Shown here: in pieces, positions 12,685 to 36,023 of the stretch | Numbering within the stretch: position 1 is the first letter of the stretch | Layout: every line of letters starts with the position of its first letter | NCBI GenBank assembly: GCA_020696385.1 | Contig: JAEHCQ010000005.1 | Span: 27,336 to 91,335 of the forward strand | Reading direction: 5' to 3' | Source of the DNA: Methanobacteriota archaeon | Lineage (GTDB): Archaea; Thermoplasmatota; Thermoplasmata; SG8-5; JAGLSY01 | DNA length: 64,000 nucleotides | Made by a program: the position numbers and the translations under genes | Notes under the pieces: model-generated | Told to the model about the DNA's origin: nothing | What the model saw: the letters and a program-made list of their open reading frames with translations, nothing else | Database searches by the model: none

Positions 12685-13203
12685 ATGGAATGTCGTGGAT
12701 CTGTTATTTTGGGCTATTTCAAATACATAAAAAAGACATGGGGTCAGCTTGGCGAAGATGAATGTGCTAAAGCTGTTGGCCTGGGTCCTGGCAAGGTCAA
12801 AGAAGCCATATGGTATGATATACGATACAGTGAGAACATACTGGAATGGATATACAAGAACAAAGGTGAAGAAGCGGTTGTCAACTGCGGCACATACACC
12901 GTGAAGGATCTAGGGTTCCTATCATACATTGTCAGATTTGCCAATGTGAAAAAGATAATAGGGCGCGCATCGGAAAGCCATAAGGATGCTTTCAAAGGTG
13001 ATGGCTCCCTCAAGGTGGACATTAAGGACAATAGCGCACTGATAACAATGAAGAACACTGCGATAAGCAAATATTCCTGCCTGGCCTGGAGAGGATGTTT
13101 TATCGGCGCACTGGAGATGACGAACACAACCGGCACTGTAATAGAAAAGCAGTGCCAGCTAAAAGATGCGGACCATTGCGAATTTATTATGGAATGGTCC
13201 TAG
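12685..13203 (+). CDS. V4R-domain protein
   Basis: C-terminal GALEM...VIEKQCQLKDADHCEFIMEW typical of V4R domains. Confidence 0.7.
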   Translation: MECRGSVILGYFKYIKKTWGQLGEDECAKAVGLGPGKVKEAIWYDIRYSENILEWIYKNKGEEAVVNCGTYTVKDLGFLSYIVRFANVKKIIGRASESHKDAFKGDGSLKVDIKDNSALITMKNTAISKYSCLAWRGCFIGALEMTNTTGTVIEKQCQLKDADHCEFIMEWS

Positions 13204-13389
13204 CCACTGCAAATTTGTCATAGAGTGGGTCTGACCATTGCGAATTTATTATGGAATGGTCCTAGCCACTGCAAATTTGTCATAGAGTGGGTCTGACCAT
13301 TGCGAATTTATTATGGAATGGTCCTAGCCACTGCAAATTTGTCATAGAGTGGGTCTGACCATTGCGAATTTATTATGGAATGGTCCTAA
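13173..13389 (+). repeat. Tandem array of seven 31-bp units alternating A-B-A-B-A-B-A (62-bp period)
   Basis: A = ccattgcgaatttattatggaatggtcctag (the V4R gene end); B = ccactgcaaatttgtcatagagtgggtctga; 21/31 identical. Confidence 0.95.
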
Positions 13390-13433
13390 AAAGCCAAACA
13401 AATTAATTTTATACACTACCACCATCCCGTCCC

Positions 13434-13529
13434 ATGAATGTAATTGACCTTGTAGCCGAGCTTGTTTCTATACCCAGAGCACACCCACTTTTTTCTTTTA
13501 AACCTCGCTGTGCTGGATCGGGCTCCTAA
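13434..13529 (+). pseudogene. Truncated 5' fragment of the M20 peptidase (MNVIDLVAELVSIP then 17 unrelated codons)
   Basis: First 14 codons identical to the intact gene; stop at 13527-13529. Confidence 0.75.
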
Positions 13530-13680
13530 ATCAAGCCCATTTCATGTGCTTGATAAAATAGATGCGTGGACTTTGTCCACATCTAAAAAAGAAAAAAGAC
13601 GGACAAATTAAATCAAGCCAGCTGACTTGATCAAAATAAATGCGTGGGTTCAGTAGGTGAAGTCGCATTTAAAAAGAAAG
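13527..13680. mobile_element. Two tandem copies of a double-hairpin dispersed module (third copy at 31476-31568, opposite strand); mobility inferred
   Basis: AATCAA(G/A)C..loop..(G)(C/T)TTGAT-AAAA(T/A)A(G/A)ATGCGTGG..loop..C(GC)AT(C/T)TAAAAA. Confidence 0.6.
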
Positions 13681-13775
13681 TCGCCCGACCCTGCTCACTC
13701 GGTATTGATTGAACCGTAGATTAGTAAATGAGTAAATAAGCAAAATAATTCTATATCCTAGTGCTATTCAACCCC

Positions 13776-14852
13776 ATGAATGTAATTGACCTTGTAGCCG
13801 AGCTTGTTTCTATACCCAGTACACTTGGAAAGACCACGGATATCGAGAACTTCGTGGCTGGCCAGTTATCCGCAATTATCGATACAGAGTTCATCGAGGT
13901 CCCGGGCAAGGGCAGGTGCGTGCTTGCCCGTTCTATCGCGGATGATAAAAAGCCGACCATAATCTTCAATGGGCATCTGGATACTGTCGAGGTGTGCAAT
14001 GGGTGGACAAAGGATCCCTTCAAGCCAGTGATCGAAGGCGATAAGATGTTCGGCCTAGGAACCGCTGACATGAAAGGCGGAGTGGCAGTTGCCATGCTGG
14101 CATTTCAAGAAGCTGTAAGAAGAGGCATCAATGCGATATTTGTCGGGACCATTGATGAGGAAGGAGATTCGGCGGGTGGCTTTGCTATCAAGGATCTGGG
14201 ACTAAAAGCAGATCTGTGCCTGATAACAGAACCCAGCAATGAGAAGATAATGCAGGGCTGTCGCGGCAGGTACGTGGTGGATGTGAACGTGAGCGGAAAG
14301 AGCGCTCACGGAGCTGTGCCCGAGAAAGGGGTCAATGCGATCACAGAGGCTGGCCGCCTGCTCTCCAGATTGGATGAGTTACCCCTAATTCATCATGATG
14401 TTCTGGGAAAGGGTTCCGTATGCCCACTCAGCGTGGGTGGAGGAACCACCACATTATCGGTTCCGGAAGAATGCCGCATTGTCATCGACAGGCATGTTGT
14501 CCCAGGCGAGACAAAGGAAAGTGTGATGCAGGACATACGCAACCTGGCTGGGAAGATAGACAGCCAGGCGACATTCGATGTGGCACTGAACCAGGAAAGA
14601 CCCACACCTTTCCTGGAGCCATATATCACGCAGGATGATGAATTGACGCGCCGATTCATCAGCACAGTCAAAGGCGATATCGCCTACGGGAAGTCAGTAG
14701 GCGATTACAATATATTTGCCACCATGTGCCCCACGATAGTCCATGGGCCAGTAGGGGAGAATTGGCATTCACCAGATGAGTGGGTGTCTATTTCTTCAAT
14801 AGAAAGATGTCTGGAGAACTACATGAGATTCCTTGATGCTTTCAAGGTCTAA
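13776..14852 (+). CDS. M20 family metallopeptidase/deacylase (ArgE/DapE-like)
   Basis: FNGHLDTV, GLGTADMKGG, DEEG, ITEPS, GKSAHGA, HSPDEWV. Confidence 0.92.
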   Translation: MNVIDLVAELVSIPSTLGKTTDIENFVAGQLSAIIDTEFIEVPGKGRCVLARSIADDKKPTIIFNGHLDTVEVCNGWTKDPFKPVIEGDKMFGLGTADMKGGVAVAMLAFQEAVRRGINAIFVGTIDEEGDSAGGFAIKDLGLKADLCLITEPSNEKIMQGCRGRYVVDVNVSGKSAHGAVPEKGVNAITEAGRLLSRLDELPLIHHDVLGKGSVCPLSVGGGTTTLSVPEECRIVIDRHVVPGETKESVMQDIRNLAGKIDSQATFDVALNQERPTPFLEPYITQDDELTRRFISTVKGDIAYGKSVGDYNIFATMCPTIVHGPVGENWHSPDEWVSISSIERCLENYMRFLDAFKV

Positions 14853-16601: not shown

Positions 16602-19600
16602 TTAATTTTTAAATTTCTTAATGTTTATAAGATACATTTCCTCAGTCAAATTACCATCTTTGTAAGCCATCTCTATTTTATCTATGATCTCTTGATTAGG
16701 ATGAGGTGGCTCAGGCTCAATTGCCAGATCATCAGCACAGATCGGGCATTGTAGGCCTGGATCGATCAGGAAACCACAAACTGGGCAGATATTTTCGACC
16801 TCAGTTGCTTGTTCTTCGTATAGATCATCTTCAGATGATACATCTTCATCAAATGAGGCGTCATCTTCGACAGGTCCATCATCTTTATTTTTACGAACAA
16901 ATAGGAATGCCAGGAACAATAATATAATGAGCCAGATCAACATCCCGATGTATATCATCGGGTCTTGGTCCTTTGACACATATTCCTCTACCCCATCTTC
17001 TGTTTCATCCAGGGGAGCAGGGTCAAATTCATCGAGTACTCCGTCATTGTCATCATCAGTGTCTTCATTGTTACCAATGCCATCCCCATCAGTATCTATT
17101 GATTCATCAGCATCAAATGGGAAAACATCATCAATATCTGGAACTCCATCATTGTCATCATCAGGGTCATCCACATCAAGTATACCATCTCGATCATTAT
17201 CTCCATGAACAACAATGATCTCAATTGTCGAGTTTATATTACCGGAATAATCTTCGACCGTGAAAGTGATACGATAAGTTCCAGGGTCTTCAAAGATATA
17301 TGATATATCATTTTGATAATTATCCAGATGACCTGGATAATCAATTGACCAATAACTATTTGCAATTCCAATATTGTCTGTTGAATTTGATCCCCAGAGA
17401 TATGTTGTTTCTCCTTCGATCGTCTCTCTAGGAACATTAATGTCAATATTTGGCTTGGTTGTATCAACTACAAAAAATAGATCTGCATTCATCGGAGGGG
17501 ATTCTTGATTGCCAGATATATCCTCTGCGATAGAATAGAATTGATACCAACCATCATTTGGTGCATTGGCCTCAACATCATAATAATATGAAGGCGTATA
17601 GTTCCATTTTGCATATGTGAAATTATTATGCTCATATTTCCAGTCAGACCAGGTTATATTATCCGCACTGTACCTTGACCATAGGCTTATGCTCTCATAA
17701 TAATAATGTACGGCATAAGAATAATTGATATTGACCATTGTGTTCTGCAAACCACTTGTTGAATCAGTAGCACTCCAAGAAAAATATAGATCCCCAAGAT
17801 CATGCCAGAAATCTTCTTGAAAGGATAGCTTAGACACAGGATCTGAAGTATCAATACAAAGAGATATGGGTGGTTCAGAAGGGGATTCTTCATAATTCCC
17901 TACTACATCACGTGCTACAGAATATAATTGATAGAAGCCATCATTACTTGGCATTTTAAAAGACCAACTACCATTATTTTCCTCCGCATACCTATGTGAA
18001 AAATAATCAGTCCATGTTAGATTGTCAGAGCTACGCCTATAATAAATATTAATTTGATCCAATCCAGTCAAATTATCATGAGCATCGATTGATAGATTAA
18101 ATGAACCATTGTTATGATAATATGGTACAGGAATTATCTCTGAGCTTGGATTCAGGGTATCACGAATAGTCTTTGTCTCTGAACTATTTTTACATATCTC
18201 AAAATTCCCATAATTGTCCTCAGATAAAGAATAGAACTCATAATATCCATCACCTTCAGGGAAGTCAAAAAGCCAATTCCATTGTGAGATAGAATCCTCA
18301 TTATATTGTTTCCAGGGAGTCCATGTAATATTAAATGAGCTATGGCGATACCATAATGTAACATTCTTAAGGCCAAATCCATCCAGATCCTCTGCGGTAG
18401 AATTTATAAGTTCAGACTGAGAGTTAATATATCTGGGAATCGATCGTAAAGATGATGTTGGTTTGATATGATCGTGAACTGGGTTCATCAGTGAATAATT
18501 ATCACTACTAAATGCGGGATAAGAATCGATATCATATCCCGAATCACCGAATCCATCTGAACCGGATATATTCTGACCCGGACCAGACATCAGATCTAAG
18601 CCATCATAGTCCGACCAGTAATTTCCCCCGATCGGGTATATGTTATTCCAATAATTTGTTGAATAATAATCATAGGCACCATAATTATTATCTAAAAATG
18701 AATTATGATAGACCATGTTCCAATCTGAATGAGAGAACATTAAGCCTCGAAAGTTATTCCATATTGTATTGTTGATTATAAAATTATTAAAACAATCATA
18801 TAAATATATCCCATAATATCCATAATTATATGGATACCCATTCCCATGTATCAAATTATTAGATATGGATGAATTTCTCGTACTTTCCATGCATATCCCA
18901 TAATATTCATTTTCTATCGTATTGTTTTGTATTGTAATATTATTCGAATAACCAGCTAATATCCCACAGGATCCATCCATTAATGTGAAGTTCTGAATGA
19001 TCGAATCTGAACAATTCGCTAAAATGATCTGACCTGCATCAGATGGTATATTAACATCAGTTTGGTTTTTAAGATAATATATTGGCAACCCATTGATAGT
19101 ATTATTGATGAATGAATGAGTATTCCAATCCAATATAATATCATTATACCAGTATCTAATCATGATTCCAGTATTTATCAGAACATTGTCTTGGATCAGT
19201 ATATATTTATTGCCGCGGATACCTATACCGACATCATAGTTATCTATTGAATTATTTATTATACTATTATTATTCCCCGGTTTCATAGTGATTCCAGTAT
19301 CCCTTGTTCCAGAAAAGATATTGTTCTGTATTATGTTTCTATCACCCTGGCCTTCGATGGAGGTTTCCATAAAAAGGTTATTTTCAATTACATTATCATT
19401 ACCAGTGAATGAGACACCTCGATAACTATTATGAGCGATCTGGTTATTTACCACAGTATTATTATTCCCAGTAATAATCACTGCGTCCTCTTGATCATAG
19501 AGCTTATTATCAAATATCATAAAATTATCTGAGTTGAAAAGTTGAATTCCATTGGAACAATTCTCAATTACAATATCATTGATCTGACCATTTGTACAGA

Positions 19601-20459
19601 ATCCTAGAATGATGCTGCCGTATGTCTCTGTAAAAGTATAATTGGAGAGCACGACATTCTTGCAATCTGCATATATTATCTGGCCTGGACCAGTTACATA
19701 AGGAGGGGTGTTAGTGTTCTTGAAATAATATATCGGCAACCCTTGAACTAAATTTGTGGTGTAAATATAATGAGTATCCCATTCTTCGACTAAGGTTCCA
19801 TAGATATGAATTCCATTGCTAAGGATATTACCTGAAAATGTATTGTGTTGGGATCGCAACATACGGATATCATCCCAATTGTTGATACTCCACCAATAGG
19901 GAGAAATATGAGTCTCAATCTGATTATTGATGATCAAATTGTAATTGCTTCCATCTAGGAACAATCCATAATATACCGAACTAATTTGATTGTTTTCAAT
20001 AAGGTTATGATCTGAATGAACAGATAGATATATCCCTCTGCTGCAATTATGGATAATATTATTGATAATATCACCATAATCAGTATTCCATAGTTGAATC
20101 CCAGCAGCTTCCCAATATAATCCACTCCAATTAGAATAAGGAAACATCAATGTACAATTTCGGATAATGAAGTTATCTGTCACGTTCCCCAAGTAAATGC
20201 AGGGTCCAAAAATGGTTCCATTGATCTCCCAGTTCTCGATCACCCAGGGATTGCCAGCACTCCCATTCCCACTAGATACTCCATTAGCAAGGGTAAAATC
20301 AGCATTTGAATTTATTCGGATCTCACCGCGAGGTGTAGTTGTAATCACATATGTAGACACATCCTTGGCTTCCGTATTATTAGCATTTGGTTCGGTAAAT
20401 AATATGATGGAACTAAATATCAATAGTACCGATAGCCAAACAGTAAATGCCTTTCTCAT
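16602..20459 (-). CDS. Large cell-surface protein: NosD/PbH1 beta-helix repeats, Ig-like/PKD domains, TSP3-like Ca repeats, TM, Zn ribbon
   Basis: Signal peptide; Asn/Ile-rich NN.I.NN repeats, GGNYWSDY; DNDRDGILD..D.DDDNDG repeats; TM; CPVC..CPIC. Confidence 0.85.
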   Translation of the reverse strand: MRKAFTVWLSVLLIFSSIILFTEPNANNTEAKDVSTYVITTTPRGEIRINSNADFTLANGVSSGNGSAGNPWVIENWEINGTIFGPCIYLGNVTDNFIIRNCTLMFPYSNWSGLYWEAAGIQLWNTDYGDIINNIIHNCSRGIYLSVHSDHNLIENNQISSVYYGLFLDGSNYNLIINNQIETHISPYWWSINNWDDIRMLRSQHNTFSGNILSNGIHIYGTLVEEWDTHYIYTTNLVQGLPIYYFKNTNTPPYVTGPGQIIYADCKNVVLSNYTFTETYGSIILGFCTNGQINDIVIENCSNGIQLFNSDNFMIFDNKLYDQEDAVIITGNNNTVVNNQIAHNSYRGVSFTGNDNVIENNLFMETSIEGQGDRNIIQNNIFSGTRDTGITMKPGNNNSIINNSIDNYDVGIGIRGNKYILIQDNVLINTGIMIRYWYNDIILDWNTHSFINNTINGLPIYYLKNQTDVNIPSDAGQIILANCSDSIIQNFTLMDGSCGILAGYSNNITIQNNTIENEYYGICMESTRNSSISNNLIHGNGYPYNYGYYGIYLYDCFNNFIINNTIWNNFRGLMFSHSDWNMVYHNSFLDNNYGAYDYYSTNYWNNIYPIGGNYWSDYDGLDLMSGPGQNISGSDGFGDSGYDIDSYPAFSSDNYSLMNPVHDHIKPTSSLRSIPRYINSQSELINSTAEDLDGFGLKNVTLWYRHSSFNITWTPWKQYNEDSISQWNWLFDFPEGDGYYEFYSLSEDNYGNFEICKNSSETKTIRDTLNPSSEIIPVPYYHNNGSFNLSIDAHDNLTGLDQINIYYRRSSDNLTWTDYFSHRYAEENNGSWSFKMPSNDGFYQLYSVARDVVGNYEESPSEPPISLCIDTSDPVSKLSFQEDFWHDLGDLYFSWSATDSTSGLQNTMVNINYSYAVHYYYESISLWSRYSADNITWSDWKYEHNNFTYAKWNYTPSYYYDVEANAPNDGWYQFYSIAEDISGNQESPPMNADLFFVVDTTKPNIDINVPRETIEGETTYLWGSNSTDNIGIANSYWSIDYPGHLDNYQNDISYIFEDPGTYRITFTVEDYSGNINSTIEIIVVHGDNDRDGILDVDDPDDDNDGVPDIDDVFPFDADESIDTDGDGIGNNEDTDDDNDGVLDEFDPAPLDETEDGVEEYVSKDQDPMIYIGMLIWLIILLFLAFLFVRKNKDDGPVEDDASFDEDVSSEDDLYEEQATEVENICPVCGFLIDPGLQCPICADDLAIEPEPPHPNQEIIDKIEMAYKDGNLTEEMYLINIKKFKN

Positions 20460-20530: not shown

Positions 20531-20788
20531 ATGCGGGGAACCGTGTGAACGATATGCCCTTGGCATGATGTTCACATCGTAGGCCATAAACCCAATTCTC
20601 GAAGCTTACGTCTTGCTTCGAGTCCAGATGAAACATAATGGTGGGTTTACGGCAACCGTTTACTACTTTCGAATCCTATAATGAAAAATGCGGGGAACCG
20701 GATTTCGCACCTACACTTCATTGCGGTGCTCTCTCGAATTTACAAGTAAATTCTCGATCGAACTTCGTTCGAATCCTATAATGAAAAA
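20531..20788 (-). mobile_element. Two tandem structured units (157 and 100 bp), each ending in a copy of the tRNA-Leu 3' end; mobility inferred
   Basis: 37-bp exact repeat at 20668-20704 and 20768-20804; 13-bp copy at 20531-20543; several internal hairpins. Confidence 0.75.
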
Positions 20789-20872
20789 TGCGGGGAACCG
20801 GATTCGAACCGGCGAATCACTAAGAACTAGACCCTGAATCTAGCGCCGTTGACCAGGCTTGGCTATCCCCGC
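20789..20872 (-). tRNA. tRNA-Leu (CAG)
   Basis: GCGGGGATAGCC...CTAGA-TTCAGGG-TCTAG...GGTTCGAATCC...CCCCGCA; long variable arm; CCA not encoded. Confidence 0.95.
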
Positions 20873-20970
20873 ATGGTGTTATGGATAAGCCCTGTAAATT
20901 CAAGAGGTTTATAAAATCTTTGATTGGATTGTATAATTTTCCGCCGATATCCTTATATCATGAAATTATC

Positions 20971-30515: not shown

Positions 30516-31304
30516 TTGGAAAGCGTGACATTCGCATTATTACTGACCACCATAGCGGGTCTATCCACTGGATTGGGCGGAGCAGTCGTACTGCTACAGA
30601 AAAAGCCCAATAAAACCCTCCTCACCTTTTCCCTGGGGCTTTCAGCCGGGGTCATGGTATATGTTTCTTTCATGGAGCTTTTACCCGATGCGATCGAGGG
30701 CATTGGAGAGGTTGCTGGCATACTGGCCTTCTTCGTCGGAGTTATGTTCATAGCTCTGATCGATGCCCTTCTACCGAAACAGCTGAATCCTCATCATTTC
30801 AGCAGGATCACTGGCAGAAAATGTGAAAAGAAAAAGAAGAGAAGTGAAGCAGAATGCCGCCTAATGAGGGTGGGCACCTTCACAGCAATTGCCATAACGA
30901 TCCATAATTTCCCAGAGGGAATAGCGACCTTTAGCGCGAGCCTGACGGACATCAGACTTGGGATGGTCATTGCCATCGCGATAGCCTTACATAATATTCC
31001 AGAGGGCATCTCGGTAGCCGCCCCCATATTCGCAGCCACAGGTGATAAGATCAAGGCCTTCAAGTACGCCTTTCTATCTGGAATAGCAGAGCCCATTGGT
31101 GGTATATTCAGTTTTATCGTGCTCTACAATTTCATGTCTGATTCCCTTTTGGCAGGATTACTGGCCTTTGTGGCTGGAATAATGATCTACATATCTCTTG
31201 ATGAGATATTACCCACAGCCCATAGCTATGGCAAGAGCCATGTTGTGCTGGCAGGTGTTATGCTGGGTATGTTCATAATGGCAATGAGCTTACTTATGTT
31301 GTGA
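30516..31304 (+). CDS. zupT: ZIP family zinc transporter
   Basis: AITIHNFPEG, IALHNIPEGISVAAP, SLDEILP. Confidence 0.95.
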   Translation: MESVTFALLLTTIAGLSTGLGGAVVLLQKKPNKTLLTFSLGLSAGVMVYVSFMELLPDAIEGIGEVAGILAFFVGVMFIALIDALLPKQLNPHHFSRITGRKCEKKKKRSEAECRLMRVGTFTAIAITIHNFPEGIATFSASLTDIRLGMVIAIAIALHNIPEGISVAAPIFAATGDKIKAFKYAFLSGIAEPIGGIFSFIVLYNFMSDSLLAGLLAFVAGIMIYISLDEILPTAHSYGKSHVVLAGVMLGMFIMAMSLLML

Positions 31305-31398
31305 ACTGCCAGATATCCTGAAAATTTCCATAGATATTATGCACAAATCTAAACCAAGCTTTTATTATGGGTATTGCATTCTCGATAAAATTACCAAA

Positions 31399-31473
31399 GG
31401 GCGCGTAGCCTAGCCAGGATATGGCGCTAGCCTTCTAAGCTAGAAGCCAGGGGTTCGAATCCCCTCGCGTCCG
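31399..31473 (+). tRNA. tRNA-Arg (TCT)
   Basis: GGGCGCG/CGCGTCC acceptor stem, CTAGC-CTTCTAA-GCTAG anticodon arm, GGGGTTCGAATCCCC T arm. Confidence 0.95.
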
Positions 31474-31700
31474 CTCTTTTATTTTTTTAAGATGCGACTT
31501 TATCATTTGATCCCACGCATCTTTTTTATCAAACAAATTTGTAAAAGATTCAGGTAATGAGTTTGATTCGATATGTTTAGAGGACGCGAGGTGGATGAGA
31601 ACGGAGTTCGACGAGATTTTTCTGAATATAATGAAGAAAAAGCGAGCAAGACCTGGATGCTGAAAGCAGACAGGTTGCTGATCCCCTCGCGTCCGCTCTT
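31474..31700 (+). mobile_element. 222-bp structured unit ending in a direct copy of the tRNA-Arg 3' end; mobility inferred
   Basis: atcccctcgcgtccgctctt at 31459-31478 and 31681-31700; inverted degenerate copy from 31582; double-hairpin module at 31476-31568. Confidence 0.75.
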
Positions 31701-31796
31701 ATTTTATTATCTTAATAAATGCGAAGTGTTGTAAACAAAACACTTATCTATTCTCTTTTGATTACTATACTATAGTTAATCCAGGGATGGACCTTA

Positions 31797-34700
31797 ATGA
31801 CCAAAATACTGAACAACCTTATCGTGCTAGTTATTTCAATTGTATTATTATCATCATCATTGACATTTGTTGGAGGGTTACAGCCTGCTGAAGATATCAC
31901 ACCAGCAGCAGAGCCAGAATCTCCTGGACTTGATTTGTTTGACCCATGGCCGACCTTCACAGGAACGACCGTCTACCATTCATGGGATGAGGCAGAGGCC
32001 GAGATGCTACAGATCGCTCTGGACCATCCAGACATCGTACAGCTTACCAGCCTTACCAAGACCTGGGAGAACAGGGATGTCTGGGCCTTCAAGATATCCG
32101 ACAATCCTACAGTGGAAGAGTCGGATGAGCCAGAGGTATTCTTCAATTCCCTACACCATGCCAGAGAGTGGATGACCATCGAGATCGCGCTCTATGCGAT
32201 CCATTTCCTGACTGACAATTATGGTATAAATGCCACAGTTACCGATATCGTGGACAATCGACAGATCTGGATAATACCTGTCGTCAATCCAGATGGAAGA
32301 GTGATCGACAGCCCAGGGGATGATCCAGCAGACCATACAGCTCAACCGTATGGTTGGAGGAAGAATGCCAGGGACAATAATGGTGACATGGTCTTCAATG
32401 AGGCGGATGATGGTGTGGATCTCAATAGAAATTATGACTGGCTATGGGGATCTTCAGGCCAGCAATCGGATCCAACGAACTACCTATATGGTGGGCCAAC
32501 AGCCTTCTCTGAACCAGAGAGCATCGCGATACGGGACCTTTGCATAGAGCATGATTTTGTCTTTGCAGTTAACTATCACACTTACAGCCAGCTCATTCTT
32601 TACCCATGGGGCTGGACATTTGAAGATACAGAGGATCATGATCTACTGGTCACTGTCGCATGGGATCTCGAAAGCAGGATCACCAATCTAGCGGGAAGCG
32701 CGCATGATGGTTATGTTCCCGAGCAGGGTGCGGATCTTTACCCCACTTCTGGTGGAACTGATGACTGGATGTACGGCAATCAGGGTATTCTTTCCTACAC
32801 CATCGAGGCCTATCCATATTATGACTGGGGTGGCGGCGGACCTGAGAGCAGCGCGGCCATTCAGGAGCCATACGACCTTTTCCATCCAAGAGAGGATAAG
32901 GTTCTGCCAGTCTGCCAGGATAATCTGCCAGCGATCATTCGATTATGCGAGATCGCTGATAATCCCTTCCAGGTGATGGATCATATAGAGATATCCACAG
33001 TTGATGAAGAACTGGTCATCGAGAAGGGAACTGGGGATTCAACGACAATTGATCTTCTAAACAATGGCCAGGGAGATGGTGACTACACGATAACAACCAG
33101 CTCGATAGCTGGCTGGTCGATAACTCCTTCCCCGGCAGCCAACAATATACTGAAAGATCAGACTGTACAGTCAACACTGAGCATCACGGTGCCAGGAGCA
33201 GCAACACCCGGTGAATATACCATCTGGGTGAATGTGTCGATGGATACGAATTCCAGCTGCACGGACTCATGCGAGGTCACCGTCATCGTGCCTTATTCCG
33301 ATGACGTTGGCGTGGATTCCATATATCCCTTCGAGGAAATGGGGATCTACCCGATGGGCGAGTACCTGATCGATGGAACTGTCAAGAATTATGGCGAGTT
33401 CCAGGTTCCATCCTTTGACACCACCTGCACGATAACCCGATTTGGTGGTGGAACTAATTACAATCTATTCTCGGATGACATGGAGAGCGGCATGACCCAG
33501 TGGGTGACTGAGGACTGGGATGGCACTCTTACTAATGACTACTGGCATACTGTATCATCCCGCAGCAATTCTCCATCCAACAGTATGTTCTGTGGCCCGG
33601 CTACCAGCGGCTACACGATATATTCAAATCAATTCCTTACCATTGCTGACCCAATTGACTTAAGGGATGCGGAGACCGCGACTCTCACCTACTGGACATG
33701 GCATGAGCTTGTGAACGATGGTTACGATGCGGACTTCTGTGTGGTAGAAGGCTCTGTGGACGGTGGCCATACGTGGAGCTTTATCGACCGCTACACAGGC
33801 GATGATATGACATGGAGGGAGCGAACTAATGACCTCACCAATTTCACTGGCTACCCCGAATTCCTGCTTCGATACAGGTTCACATCAGACAATATGGATT
33901 ATGGGGATACAGGTTTCTATTTCGATGACATAAGTATAGACGCGTTCATACCCGGCGAGACCGTGGTATTCGGCCCCACCATCCAGACCACAAGCGCACC
34001 ACTGGACACGCAACTTACCGAGGATCTGCAATGGCAATATAACTTCGATCAGAGTGGCACATACAGAGTGTCCATGGAGACCCAGTATGGTGCAGATGGC
34101 AATACAGCGAATGACCTGTTGGATGTCATATTCGATATAGGCAGCACACACCTGCCAGATTTCACAGGTGTGGATGATGTCATCAATATCGGAACTGGGG
34201 ATCAGCTTGACATTTACTGGAGCGCGGCAAATGATCCGAATTTGCCGATAACCTACAGCCTTTACAGATTTGACAATTTACCAAACGAAGCGGAGGTTAA
34301 CGCTTCGTCCGCCATATGGACTGGCACAGCTCTTTCCTACAGTGATAACAGTGTGACTGCCGGGGAGACCTATTTCTACATCGTGAGGGCGAGCGACGCC
34401 CTCGGCCAGGAGGAATGGAACATGCTGGCAATAGATGGGACACCATCCATTCAGTTATTGTTCCAGGTACAATCGCCAATGGCTGGCTTCCGCGATCTCA
34501 ATCAAGATACCTTTGAATCATCCATACAGATTGCGACCAGCCCGGACATAACAGGCCCGGGACAGTATCAGGTCGGAGGGGCTGATGACCATTGGCTTTC
34601 CGAAGTTTATACCAATGCCCAGCAAATGGACGGCACATGGAAATTCAATATCTGGGGACAGATGAGCAATGACATGGCCAACTCGAACCTTTATGCAAGG

Positions 34701-36023
34701 GTTTACAGATACAGCGATGATGGCCTTCTTTTCCAGACCGTACTGGATGATGAAGATACCAGTGCCTTCGCAGGTGCCTATCACGAATTCTCATGGGAGC
34801 ATACGGTGGCAGGCGTCACATTGCCCGCCAGTGACAGGTTCTATGTGGAGATATGGCTGGATGCCTCAAGTGGCGCGGCAGGTCAGTCCGGGGAGACATT
34901 GAACCCGGACTTTACCGGAAGTGCCAGCAGCTGGACATATTATGATTGGGAAGATACAGGAGGAGGAGATTCTACAGGAGCCTGGGCTGGCTCATATATC
35001 AATGTCAGACTGGATGATGCAAATACAGGAGGTTCATCCGAGCAGACATACTCAGGATACTGGGAGCAATCCTTCGACACTGGCACAGTTCCCAATTCAG
35101 CTTATATCGAGCTTGATTGGAGCTGTACGGAATTCGATGGTGGAACTGCGAACCTTATCGCATATGCCTTCATAGATACCGCATCAGGCTTACCATCTGT
35201 CGGAACACAGGTCTGGAGCAGCGGCCAGATAACTGGAACTACTACATGGGCCTCAACTGCTCAGATCGATGTGAGCAGTGTGATGGGAACCGGCACCACT
35301 TATTATCTCAAGGTGGGTCTCAGAGATACAAATCTTGCAAAGAATGAGGGGCAGAGAGAGGTTGGCTTTGACAATGTGAAAGTCGTTTACGGCACACCAG
35401 CGCCTGTCTTCACATTTGCTTTCGACCATCAAGCAACACCGTCCGGCATAGAGGCCGCCCTCACTTCCATAGGCGGCGGCATAACCTATGACATTGACCT
35501 TACTGGCATAGCCGCAGATACCTGGGTGATGGCATCCTTCCCGATATTTGCGACTGGAAACCCGACCACGATCATCGATGATGCACTTCACGGGGACGCG
35601 AACACCACATGGGATATCATCATGTGGTATGATGCCAATGATACAGACCACTGGAAGTCATATGATAAGACGCAGGCAGCTGCCGGAATTCCACAGGATC
35701 TACTAACCATTGACAATCAATATGGATTCTGGATACACATCACGTCCAATTCAGGTGATGAGCTACTGTCCATCGGAACGGGCAATCAACCCGCAACATC
35801 CAGCATAATTCTGGAAGCTGGATGGAACCTTGTTGGATATCCATCCGCCACCCCAAGGCAGGCAGATGCAACACTGCCTGGCGAGGTAACTATGATCGCC
35901 TTCTACAACGATGCACAGGCATATTCTATACAGGAATTGCCACTTGCCTCGGTGACAATGGAAAGTGGAAATGCATACTGGGTGTATTCGACAGTGATGG
36001 TGCAGTGGGATGTGGACTGGTAA
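31797..36023 (+). CDS. Secreted M14 zinc carboxypeptidase with multiple beta-sandwich accessory domains
   Basis: HHAREW, NPDG, GVDLNRNY, FSEPES, NYHTYSQLILYPW, YTIE; Ig/Fn3-like repeats; C-terminal GWNLVGYP domain. Confidence 0.9.
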   Translation: MTKILNNLIVLVISIVLLSSSLTFVGGLQPAEDITPAAEPESPGLDLFDPWPTFTGTTVYHSWDEAEAEMLQIALDHPDIVQLTSLTKTWENRDVWAFKISDNPTVEESDEPEVFFNSLHHAREWMTIEIALYAIHFLTDNYGINATVTDIVDNRQIWIIPVVNPDGRVIDSPGDDPADHTAQPYGWRKNARDNNGDMVFNEADDGVDLNRNYDWLWGSSGQQSDPTNYLYGGPTAFSEPESIAIRDLCIEHDFVFAVNYHTYSQLILYPWGWTFEDTEDHDLLVTVAWDLESRITNLAGSAHDGYVPEQGADLYPTSGGTDDWMYGNQGILSYTIEAYPYYDWGGGGPESSAAIQEPYDLFHPREDKVLPVCQDNLPAIIRLCEIADNPFQVMDHIEISTVDEELVIEKGTGDSTTIDLLNNGQGDGDYTITTSSIAGWSITPSPAANNILKDQTVQSTLSITVPGAATPGEYTIWVNVSMDTNSSCTDSCEVTVIVPYSDDVGVDSIYPFEEMGIYPMGEYLIDGTVKNYGEFQVPSFDTTCTITRFGGGTNYNLFSDDMESGMTQWVTEDWDGTLTNDYWHTVSSRSNSPSNSMFCGPATSGYTIYSNQFLTIADPIDLRDAETATLTYWTWHELVNDGYDADFCVVEGSVDGGHTWSFIDRYTGDDMTWRERTNDLTNFTGYPEFLLRYRFTSDNMDYGDTGFYFDDISIDAFIPGETVVFGPTIQTTSAPLDTQLTEDLQWQYNFDQSGTYRVSMETQYGADGNTANDLLDVIFDIGSTHLPDFTGVDDVINIGTGDQLDIYWSAANDPNLPITYSLYRFDNLPNEAEVNASSAIWTGTALSYSDNSVTAGETYFYIVRASDALGQEEWNMLAIDGTPSIQLLFQVQSPMAGFRDLNQDTFESSIQIATSPDITGPGQYQVGGADDHWLSEVYTNAQQMDGTWKFNIWGQMSNDMANSNLYARVYRYSDDGLLFQTVLDDEDTSAFAGAYHEFSWEHTVAGVTLPASDRFYVEIWLDASSGAAGQSGETLNPDFTGSASSWTYYDWEDTGGGDSTGAWAGSYINVRLDDANTGGSSEQTYSGYWEQSFDTGTVPNSAYIELDWSCTEFDGGTANLIAYAFIDTASGLPSVGTQVWSSGQITGTTTWASTAQIDVSSVMGTGTTYYLKVGLRDTNLAKNEGQREVGFDNVKVVYGTPAPVFTFAFDHQATPSGIEAALTSIGGGITYDIDLTGIAADTWVMASFPIFATGNPTTIIDDALHGDANTTWDIIMWYDANDTDHWKSYDKTQAAAGIPQDLLTIDNQYGFWIHITSNSGDELLSIGTGNQPATSSIILEAGWNLVGYPSATPRQADATLPGEVTMIAFYNDAQAYSIQELPLASVTMESGNAYWVYSTVMVQWDVDW

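Follow-up and report, generated by a model that had tools for sequence, protein, structure and literature searches.

The 3′ end of a single archaeal tRNA-Arg gene occurs three times within 240 bp, in a native, an inverted and a direct copy, and the question is how this arrangement arose and what it is for. An earlier note on the locus described the three copies and proposed that they form a recombination substrate or a structural switch in the precursor tRNA. We analyzed the whole 64-kb stretch of DNA around the locus (the window). The host is an uncultured Thermoplasmata archaeon from marine sediment. Its closest proteins are annotated as Thermoplasmata or Thermoplasmatota, with Ca. Proteinoplasmatales SG8-5 among the relatives, and the sequencing runs with words common to the Arg locus were cold-seep and marine-sediment metagenomes. 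The comparison was based on two tRNA loci in about six related genomes, all of them metagenome assemblies, including an independent assembly (L001, GCA_020714265.1) and a sister species (L002, GCA_020697715.1). A scan of a genome collection poor in this lineage, made with the ZIP protein encoded beside tRNA-Arg, returned the sister genome as the sole close relative. The corresponding loci of the SG8-5 relatives, located via HtpX, showed a different synteny and no tRNA.

The tRNA-Arg(TCT) gene (31399-31474, + strand) was identified with ARAGORN and with the Rfam tRNA model (65.7 bits). It is intact, does not encode CCA, needs no part of the distal copy to be complete, and is identical in the sister. 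It is flanked by a ZIP/ZupT zinc-transporter gene (30516-31304) and by a gene for an M14 carboxypeptidase of 1408 aa (31797-36023). Across the 64 kb there are exactly two instances of the 20-mer ATCCCCTCGCGTCCGCTCTT, one at 31459-31478 and one at 31681-31700 (both + strand), and none of 100 shuffles yielded two or more. The native copy runs from the T-loop to the tRNA 3′ end and on through CTCTT. When the degenerate T-rich flanks are included, the direct repeat is 28 nt long at 89% identity; it is 25 nt long in variants without the 91-bp insertion described below. The inverted copy of the tRNA 3′ half (31579-31602, - strand) is degenerate and comprises the acceptor 3′ strand, the T-stem and the T-loop; at 31582-31602 it reads directly as GGACGCGAGGTGGATGAGAAC. 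The 10-mer core CCTCGCGTCC is found in the native, inverted (31582-31591) and distal copies, i.e., three times against 0.06 expected, a number reached in 0/100 shuffles, and the match of the inverted arm reaches 13 nt at 92% (31579-31591). The T-loop part of the inverted copy is intact in the sister genome (GGATTCGAAC, L002 8891-8914), a variant from a cold-seep metagenome is 2 nt shorter at 31591 and thereby nearer to a perfect reverse complement, and the independent assembly is identical to the window across the Arg locus. For these three reasons we regard the inverted copy as a real tRNA-derived piece. All three copies reported in the earlier note, including the exact 20-bp direct copy at 31681-31700 and the degenerate inverted copy at 31582-31602, were thus confirmed, far beyond what shuffled sequences produce.

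The inverted arm opens the body of the Arg element, a non-coding stretch of about 100 nt (31579-31680, + strand) that consists of a 5′ palindrome module (GGATGAGAAC-GGA-GTTCGAC-GAGATTTTT) and two hairpins. The bounded segment at tRNA-Arg is 202 bp long here, within a range of about 135-220 bp. Terminal inverted repeats of the Arg unit span 13 nt at 92% in the window and are weaker in the sister. The earlier note had predicted that the inverted copy can pair either with the distal copy, in a hairpin of about 120 nt, or with the native tRNA 3′ half, and folding reproduced both. The 120-nt hairpin has a free energy of -51.6 kcal/mol (z = -6.2), and in the centroid structure of a 312-nt fold the inverted copy pairs with the native 3′ half instead. 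The sister's Arg unit folds no better than shuffled sequence (z = -0.8) and has a broken pair in the closing helix. No positive covariation was obtained for the Arg element. Behind the tRNA lies a T-rich tract, CTCTTTTATTTTTT (31475-31488, + strand), a predicted terminator with T4-A-T7 overall, in which the run reaches 31486 and is followed by further T's. T4-A-T7 begins 5 nt past the discriminator base; the sister has T6-A-T5 directly past it. Efficient termination by archaeal RNA polymerase occurs at 5-6 T (PMC2253867; PMC8716108). Because the T-tract follows directly on the tRNA, the element is probably not part of the pre-tRNA.

In a more distant relative (L004, L006; ZIP 77% identical), 69 nt separate the ZIP stop codon from tRNA-Arg, which is encoded on the opposite strand, and no extra copy of the tRNA-Arg 3′ end was found at this orthologous ZIP-tRNA-Arg site. 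Since the neighbourhood is the same and the extra copies are missing, we consider it an empty site. In the sister (ZIP 93% identical) the flanking genes are the same and none of the three copies is missing. Compared with it, a block containing the promoter, tRNA, element and distal copy (31306-31734) is inverted in the window relative to the ZIP and M14-peptidase genes. In blastn, the flanks aligned plus/plus and 31357-31718 aligned plus/minus. The inverted block of the sister also includes a spacer of about 50 nt, and the window's spacer at 31306-31356 has lost all alignment to the sister. In a third lineage (L093, ZIP 83% identical) tRNA-Arg is oriented as in the window, which implies that the block has flipped at least twice. 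A palindrome, AAGTGTT-N8-AACACTT (31724-31745), spans the right breakpoint of this 430-bp inversion, as read from the sequence against the blastn breakpoint, and may be a trace of a rearrangement of the template-switch type. The distal copy of the sister lies 15 nt from the ZIP stop, the position of the intact tRNA end in L004, and it is mainly on account of this position that we read it as the original end, displaced. Homology between the distal-copy flank and the outgroup tRNA flank is suggestive; the alignment is so A/T-rich that it does not discriminate between the copies as the original.

The spacer that separates tRNA-Arg from the inverted copy measures 103 nt in the window; the sister has one of 20 nt, and some metagenome variants also have a short one. 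In this spacer the window carries a 91-bp hairpin-pair insertion, the H element (31480-31570, + strand), which consists of AAGATGCG..CGCATCTT with T6 and then ATCAAAC..GTTTGAT. The insertion is missing from the sister and from some metagenome variants; contigs of two cold-seep runs (X1 and X3) join 31479 directly to 31571. In the X1 and X3 samples the 91-bp segment is multi-copy, with a depth as high as 76 where the flanks have 3-10. In the window its insertion deleted a TATA-like leader ahead of the Arg unit. Paralogues were found at 13529-13679 of the window and, after a tRNA-Leu end copy of the sister, at L094 5464-5544. The H elements follow the pattern T-rich, A(A/G)ATGCG-N19-CGCAT(C/T)T, T-rich, ATCAA..TTGAT, and in two cases stand directly behind a copy of a tRNA 3′ end. 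They had no matches among the viral contigs, and may be MITE-like or terminator-like repeats. The two H-type elements at 13529-13679 lie between the copies of an 87-nt direct repeat (13396-13824, 83% identical, spacing 342) in which the promoter of an M20 peptidase gene (13761-14852) is duplicated together with the gene's first 47 nt; the sister has merely a 48-nt intergenic region there. Next to it, a tandem array with a period of 62 nt and about 3.5 copies (13171-13388) repeats the last codons of a 172-aa ORF (12685-13203).

The second tRNA of the window, tRNA-Leu(CAG) (20788-20873, - strand; ARAGORN and Rfam), has a similar array downstream. Its 3′ end is present in three copies in the window and four in the sister. 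The second copy, at 20689-20704, belongs to a 43-nt repeat of 95% identity with a spacing of 100. Unit A, of 84 nt (20705-20788, - strand), lies between the native and the second copies. The second copy, unit B of about 141 nt (20544-20688) and a third, partial copy together occupy 20532-20704 (- strand); the partial copy is CGGTTCCCCGCA (20532-20543, - strand). The Leu units begin 12-34 nt past the tRNA end with an inverse T-loop copy, GGATTCGAA..., continue with two or three hairpins, and finish by repeating, in direct orientation, the 3′ end of the tRNA that they follow. From this inverse T-loop start and the matching 3′-end copy we take the unit ends to be terminal inverted repeats matched to the target. 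The Arg element has the same layout, with the T-loop part degenerate in the window. The Leu units have no inverted acceptor copy, i.e., no acceptor-complementary 5′ strand. A T-tract stands behind every tRNA-end copy.

The number of units varies among relatives and in a metagenome contig, and the variable part is next to the tRNA. The order at the sister's tRNA-Leu is A, B1, H element, B2; at least two B-type units are present in L095 and none in L097, and one metagenome contig contains an extra tandem A junction. Unit numbers from these metagenome-assembled genomes are lower bounds, since short-read assemblies break at the tRNA-end repeats. The end copies follow the acceptor substitution of their own tRNA, with CCCTGCA in L095 against CCCCGCA in the window. 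Past the Leu array and before ftsY, the window contains a gene (16602-20459, - strand) for a protein of 1285 aa with NosD/beta-helix, Ig-like and PKD domains, at a GC content of 0.33. The relatives have genes for 147 + 76 aa, one gene for 408 aa, or no gene at this position. As each relative differs there, the 1285-aa gene acts like variable cargo in an islet seeded by the tRNA. The 408-aa gene of L095 had no Pfam, PHROG or PDB matches. The block of tRNA-Leu, array and cargo is inverted relative to ftsY/htpX in the window and the sister as against L095, L096 and L097. With both the Arg and the Leu blocks flipping, small inversions of tRNA blocks seem to be recurrent in the lineage. Cassette arrays appear to be a habit of the lineage as well, given that the window's other tRNA carries a similar array.

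Conservation of the units exceeds the neutral rate, i.e., they are under constraint and not junk. Fourfold-degenerate sites are 53-66% identical between the window and the sister, and the corresponding values are 82% for the Arg element (84/102), 96% for Leu unit A and 91% for unit B. A fold of 37 pairs is common to five B units from three lineages. It contains 10 compensatory pairs, and 97.8% of the cells are paired; the observed values were reached by 0/500 shuffles, and slid controls gave 0-1 compensatory pairs. The G-U pairs of unit B are on the tRNA-sense strand. Unit A has one compensatory pair (C-G to T-A) between the sister genomes. Leu unit A and the Arg element have homologous 5′ modules of the form GGATTCGAAC-NNN-GTTCGAT-GAGA-TTT. 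The local alignment of this module scored 20, compared with 10.1 ± 1.8 for shuffled sequences, and 0/1000 shuffles reached 20. In the sequence alignment of the Arg element with Leu unit A only this 5′ hairpin is shared.

No integrase or other gene was found in the 202-bp Arg segment. Its ORFs, of 53 aa (+ strand) and 48 aa (- strand), have no Pfam matches and are interrupted in the sister, and the Arg element as a whole gave no Pfam match. A six-frame comparison of the window and the sister revealed no frame that keeps a conserved start; about half of the changes are synonymous in one frame, which has no start codon and in which the signal is not significant. Among the neighbouring genes scanned, no integrase was identified. 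In Rfam 15, the tRNAs alone matched in the Arg and Leu regions, and the next-best matches had E ≥ 0.18. C/D box sRNAs have C (RUGAUGA) and D (CUGA) boxes beside a terminal stem. The window has GGAUGAG and CUGA, and the sister has GGAUUCG at the C position, so that the C box is not conserved; the match to Rfam sR4 was 13.8 bits against a gathering score of 50. A primer-binding site for reverse transcription was also rejected, as there is no TGG (the complement of CCA) beside the inverted copy. The hallmarks of casposons are a Cas1 gene, terminal inverted repeats at the boundaries and a duplication of 14-15 bp. The sister's repeat is 15 bp long, yet boundary inverted repeats and a gene are absent. 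Read by eye, the units do not fit the RYYYAAC and GTTRRRY motifs of integron attC sites. Scans of viral contigs for a free, circular, viral or plasmid relative gave nothing or chance matches that did not extend, and scans of JGI metagenomes with tRNA patterns gave 0 matches in collections that may not hold this lineage. Four RNA-type runs contained only tRNA-like pieces from other organisms and no unit transcripts. No further copy of the Arg unit was found in the window or in the related loci compared with it.

Our preferred explanation, to which we assign a probability of about 50%, is that small non-coding cassettes are joined to tRNA 3′ ends by site-specific recombination and that the Arg case is one member of this family. 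A cassette would have entered the T-loop/3′ end of tRNA-Arg(TCT) by conservative, integrase-type recombination in the common ancestor of this archaeon and the sister species. The original tRNA 3′ end would have been pushed about 135 bp downstream and would now be the attR-like distal copy. The cassette would have brought its own copy of the 3′ end, which as the attL-like core would complete the working gene, and the inverted copy would be the motif of the cassette's left end. Two later events shaped the window: the 91-bp hairpin repeat entered the gap between tRNA and cassette, and the block as a whole flipped. Insertion at the tRNA 3′ end is indicated by the intact gene with a displaced direct fragment, the identity block starting in the T-loop, the empty site, the stacking of units, and copies that track their tRNA. 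Archaeal att sites likewise have an identity block from the T-loop to past the tRNA end, and tRNA-Arg(TCT) is among the most used targets (PMC8371274). The variable cargo beyond the Leu array, the 5′ module common to two tRNAs, and the constraint on the units together with the conserved fold of unit B also favour cassettes. Several points tell against their integration. No integrase was found in the segment or among the neighbouring genes scanned, and no free, circular, viral or plasmid relative turned up in the collections searched. Units of 84-141 bp are too small for autonomy and small for double-stranded circles, and simple integration alone gives no account of the presence of the inverted copy. 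The cassettes may still be in use, either as recombination sites or as small RNAs. A broader proposal, which we advance tentatively, is that the units form an undescribed family of structured non-coding cassettes of about 85-170 nt, stacked at tRNA 3′ ends and maintained by selection, to which covariation and a conservation well in excess of the synonymous rate point, as an integron-like platform or as small RNAs with a tRNA tail or minihelix. Members of such a family would start with an inverse T-loop and finish with an exact 3′ end of the host tRNA, and recombination at the copies would account for their gain, loss and homogenisation.

It is also possible, but in our judgement rather improbable, that the units are genes of small structured RNAs, with a TATA-like T-rich leader and termination at the T-tract behind the end copy, and that the arrays grew by duplication. 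A closing helix between the two copies of the Arg unit, inverted and direct, would then be a minihelix mimic of the stack of acceptor stem and T-stem. Conservation above neutral, the compensatory changes of unit B, whose G-U pairs are on the tRNA-sense strand, the compensatory pair of unit A, the z of -6.2 of the Arg unit, and the T-tracts behind every copy all agree with such RNAs, which are compatible with a recombinational origin of the units. They are harder to reconcile with the absence of Rfam families and of transcripts in the four RNA-type runs, with the z of -0.8 and the broken closing-helix pair of the sister's Arg unit, and with the loss of the TATA-like leader to the H insertion. 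Moreover, the Leu units are without the acceptor-complementary 5′ strand, and the empty site of L004 shows that the unit is dispensable. The element could alternatively be an inert scar, left when a large virus or plasmid integrated in the tRNA and was then nearly all deleted, with the arm ends and the att duplication drifting neutrally. Neutral drift does not fit an element that is 82% identical next to fourfold sites at 53-66% and to a neighbouring spacer (31306-31356) that cannot be aligned, nor does it fit a compact architecture that recurs at tRNA-Leu with complete units and covariation in three lineages. Thus a scar is unlikely, even though duplications of tRNA fragments by integrated elements are pervasive in archaea (PMC9897764; PMC8371274), the outgroup has an empty site, and no ORF is present.

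Local replication errors, i.e., template switching or slippage at the palindromic T-arm, might have made both partial duplicates without a mobile element. The palindromic junction at the right inversion breakpoint (31724-31745) and the other local duplications at 13.2-13.8 kb, the 87-nt gene-start repeat and the 62-nt tandem array, speak for such errors. We nevertheless give them little credence, because the roughly 85 nt between the copies derive neither from the tRNA nor from the outgroup trailer, a homologous 5′ module stands at another tRNA, and the units are conserved and structured. The switch suggested in the earlier note, in which the three copies would control the folding or 3′ processing of a read-through pre-tRNA, draws on the identity of the native and distal copies over 20 nt and on the ability of the inverted copy to pair with either, the alternative being visible in the 312-nt centroid. 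We consider it very unlikely. T4-A-T7 stands right behind the tRNA, where termination is expected (PMC2253867; PMC8716108), the spacing of 20 to 103 nt was changed fivefold by the recent 91-bp insertion, the sister's fold is non-significant (z = -0.8), the arrangement is missing at the empty site of L004 and L006, and the Leu units have no inverted acceptor copy. The other half of the suggestion, a recombination substrate, fared well: the att-type duplication, the empty site, the inversion, the insertion and the tRNA-Leu parallel are all in line with it. An artefact of the metagenome assembly is hardly credible. Gaps of 101 N with the same tRNA 3′-end k-mer on both sides occur in scaffolds of one study (L003 8870-8970 and L095 3863-3963), and several contigs, among them L005 and L093, stop at the tRNA 3′ end. 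Against this, a second assembly is identical, another species has the orthologous arrangement, and metagenome contigs cross the junctions.

We return to the recombined cassettes as the preferred reading. At one level the locus is ordinary, since integrated mobile elements are classically recognised by duplicated tRNA ends. Its unusual part is the content between the copies, which consists of compact, gene-less, hairpin-rich units and not of a decayed virus. The units recur at two tRNAs, share a module, keep their fold via compensation, and evolve more slowly than synonymous sites. If they are active cassettes or small RNAs, they would represent a new kind of tRNA-anchored element in widespread uncultured sediment archaea, and, as both tRNA blocks have flipped between relatives, they would also give rise to rearrangements nearby. 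In practical terms, the tRNA-end copies break short-read assemblies and can mislead tRNA annotation.

The arrangement can be compared with several known systems. As in tRNA minihelices and tRNA-like structures, the closing helix of the Arg unit equals a stack of acceptor stem and T-stem followed by the discriminator base. Here, about 85 nt stand in place of the T-loop, the Leu units form no such helix, and no transcript of the unit was found in the four RNA-type runs. MITEs (PMC11602168) are likewise small, non-coding and hairpin-rich, and the Arg unit has imperfect terminal inverted repeats of 13-18 nt, weaker in the sister than in the window, inside a direct repeat. In contrast to MITEs, the "target duplication" of 12-43 nt equals the right terminal repeat, and the insertions are confined to tRNA 3′ ends. 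MITEs are further marked by a short target duplication and many dispersed copies, whereas the direct repeat at tRNA-Arg is 15-25 nt long and the 64 kb hold no dispersed copies. The units resemble integron arrays in that short units are stacked at one anchor, with conservation of structure and not of sequence and with a strain-variable copy number. They differ from them in the absence of an IntI gene, R''/R' boxes and ORFs, and in having a tRNA 3′ end as the anchor. Integrons have been reported in archaea.

The footprints that tyrosine integrases leave at tRNA genes (PMC8371274, PMC9897764, PMC4383910) have the same intact tRNA with a direct 3′ copy, the identity from the T-loop to past the end, the favoured tRNA-Arg(TCT) and an empty site. 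Of the features that define a footprint in the sense of Islander, we found an intact tRNA with a displaced direct 3′ fragment and an unoccupied site in a relative (L004 and L006); the segment itself has no integrase, and the searched viral and JGI collections yielded no free element or attP. Compared with these footprints, the segments described here are only about 135-220 bp long and gene-less, begin with an inverted copy of the target, and are conserved above neutral. Tycheposons of Prochlorococcus (bioRxiv 10.1101/2020.12.28.424599) are also built by successive tRNA insertions that push older material outward, with partial copies separating the units, and the variable cargo beyond the array and the heterogeneity greatest beside the tRNA make the tRNA-Leu locus similar to them. 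Tycheposon units are kilobase elements with integrases, whereas those described here are hairpin modules of 84-141 nt in an archaeon.
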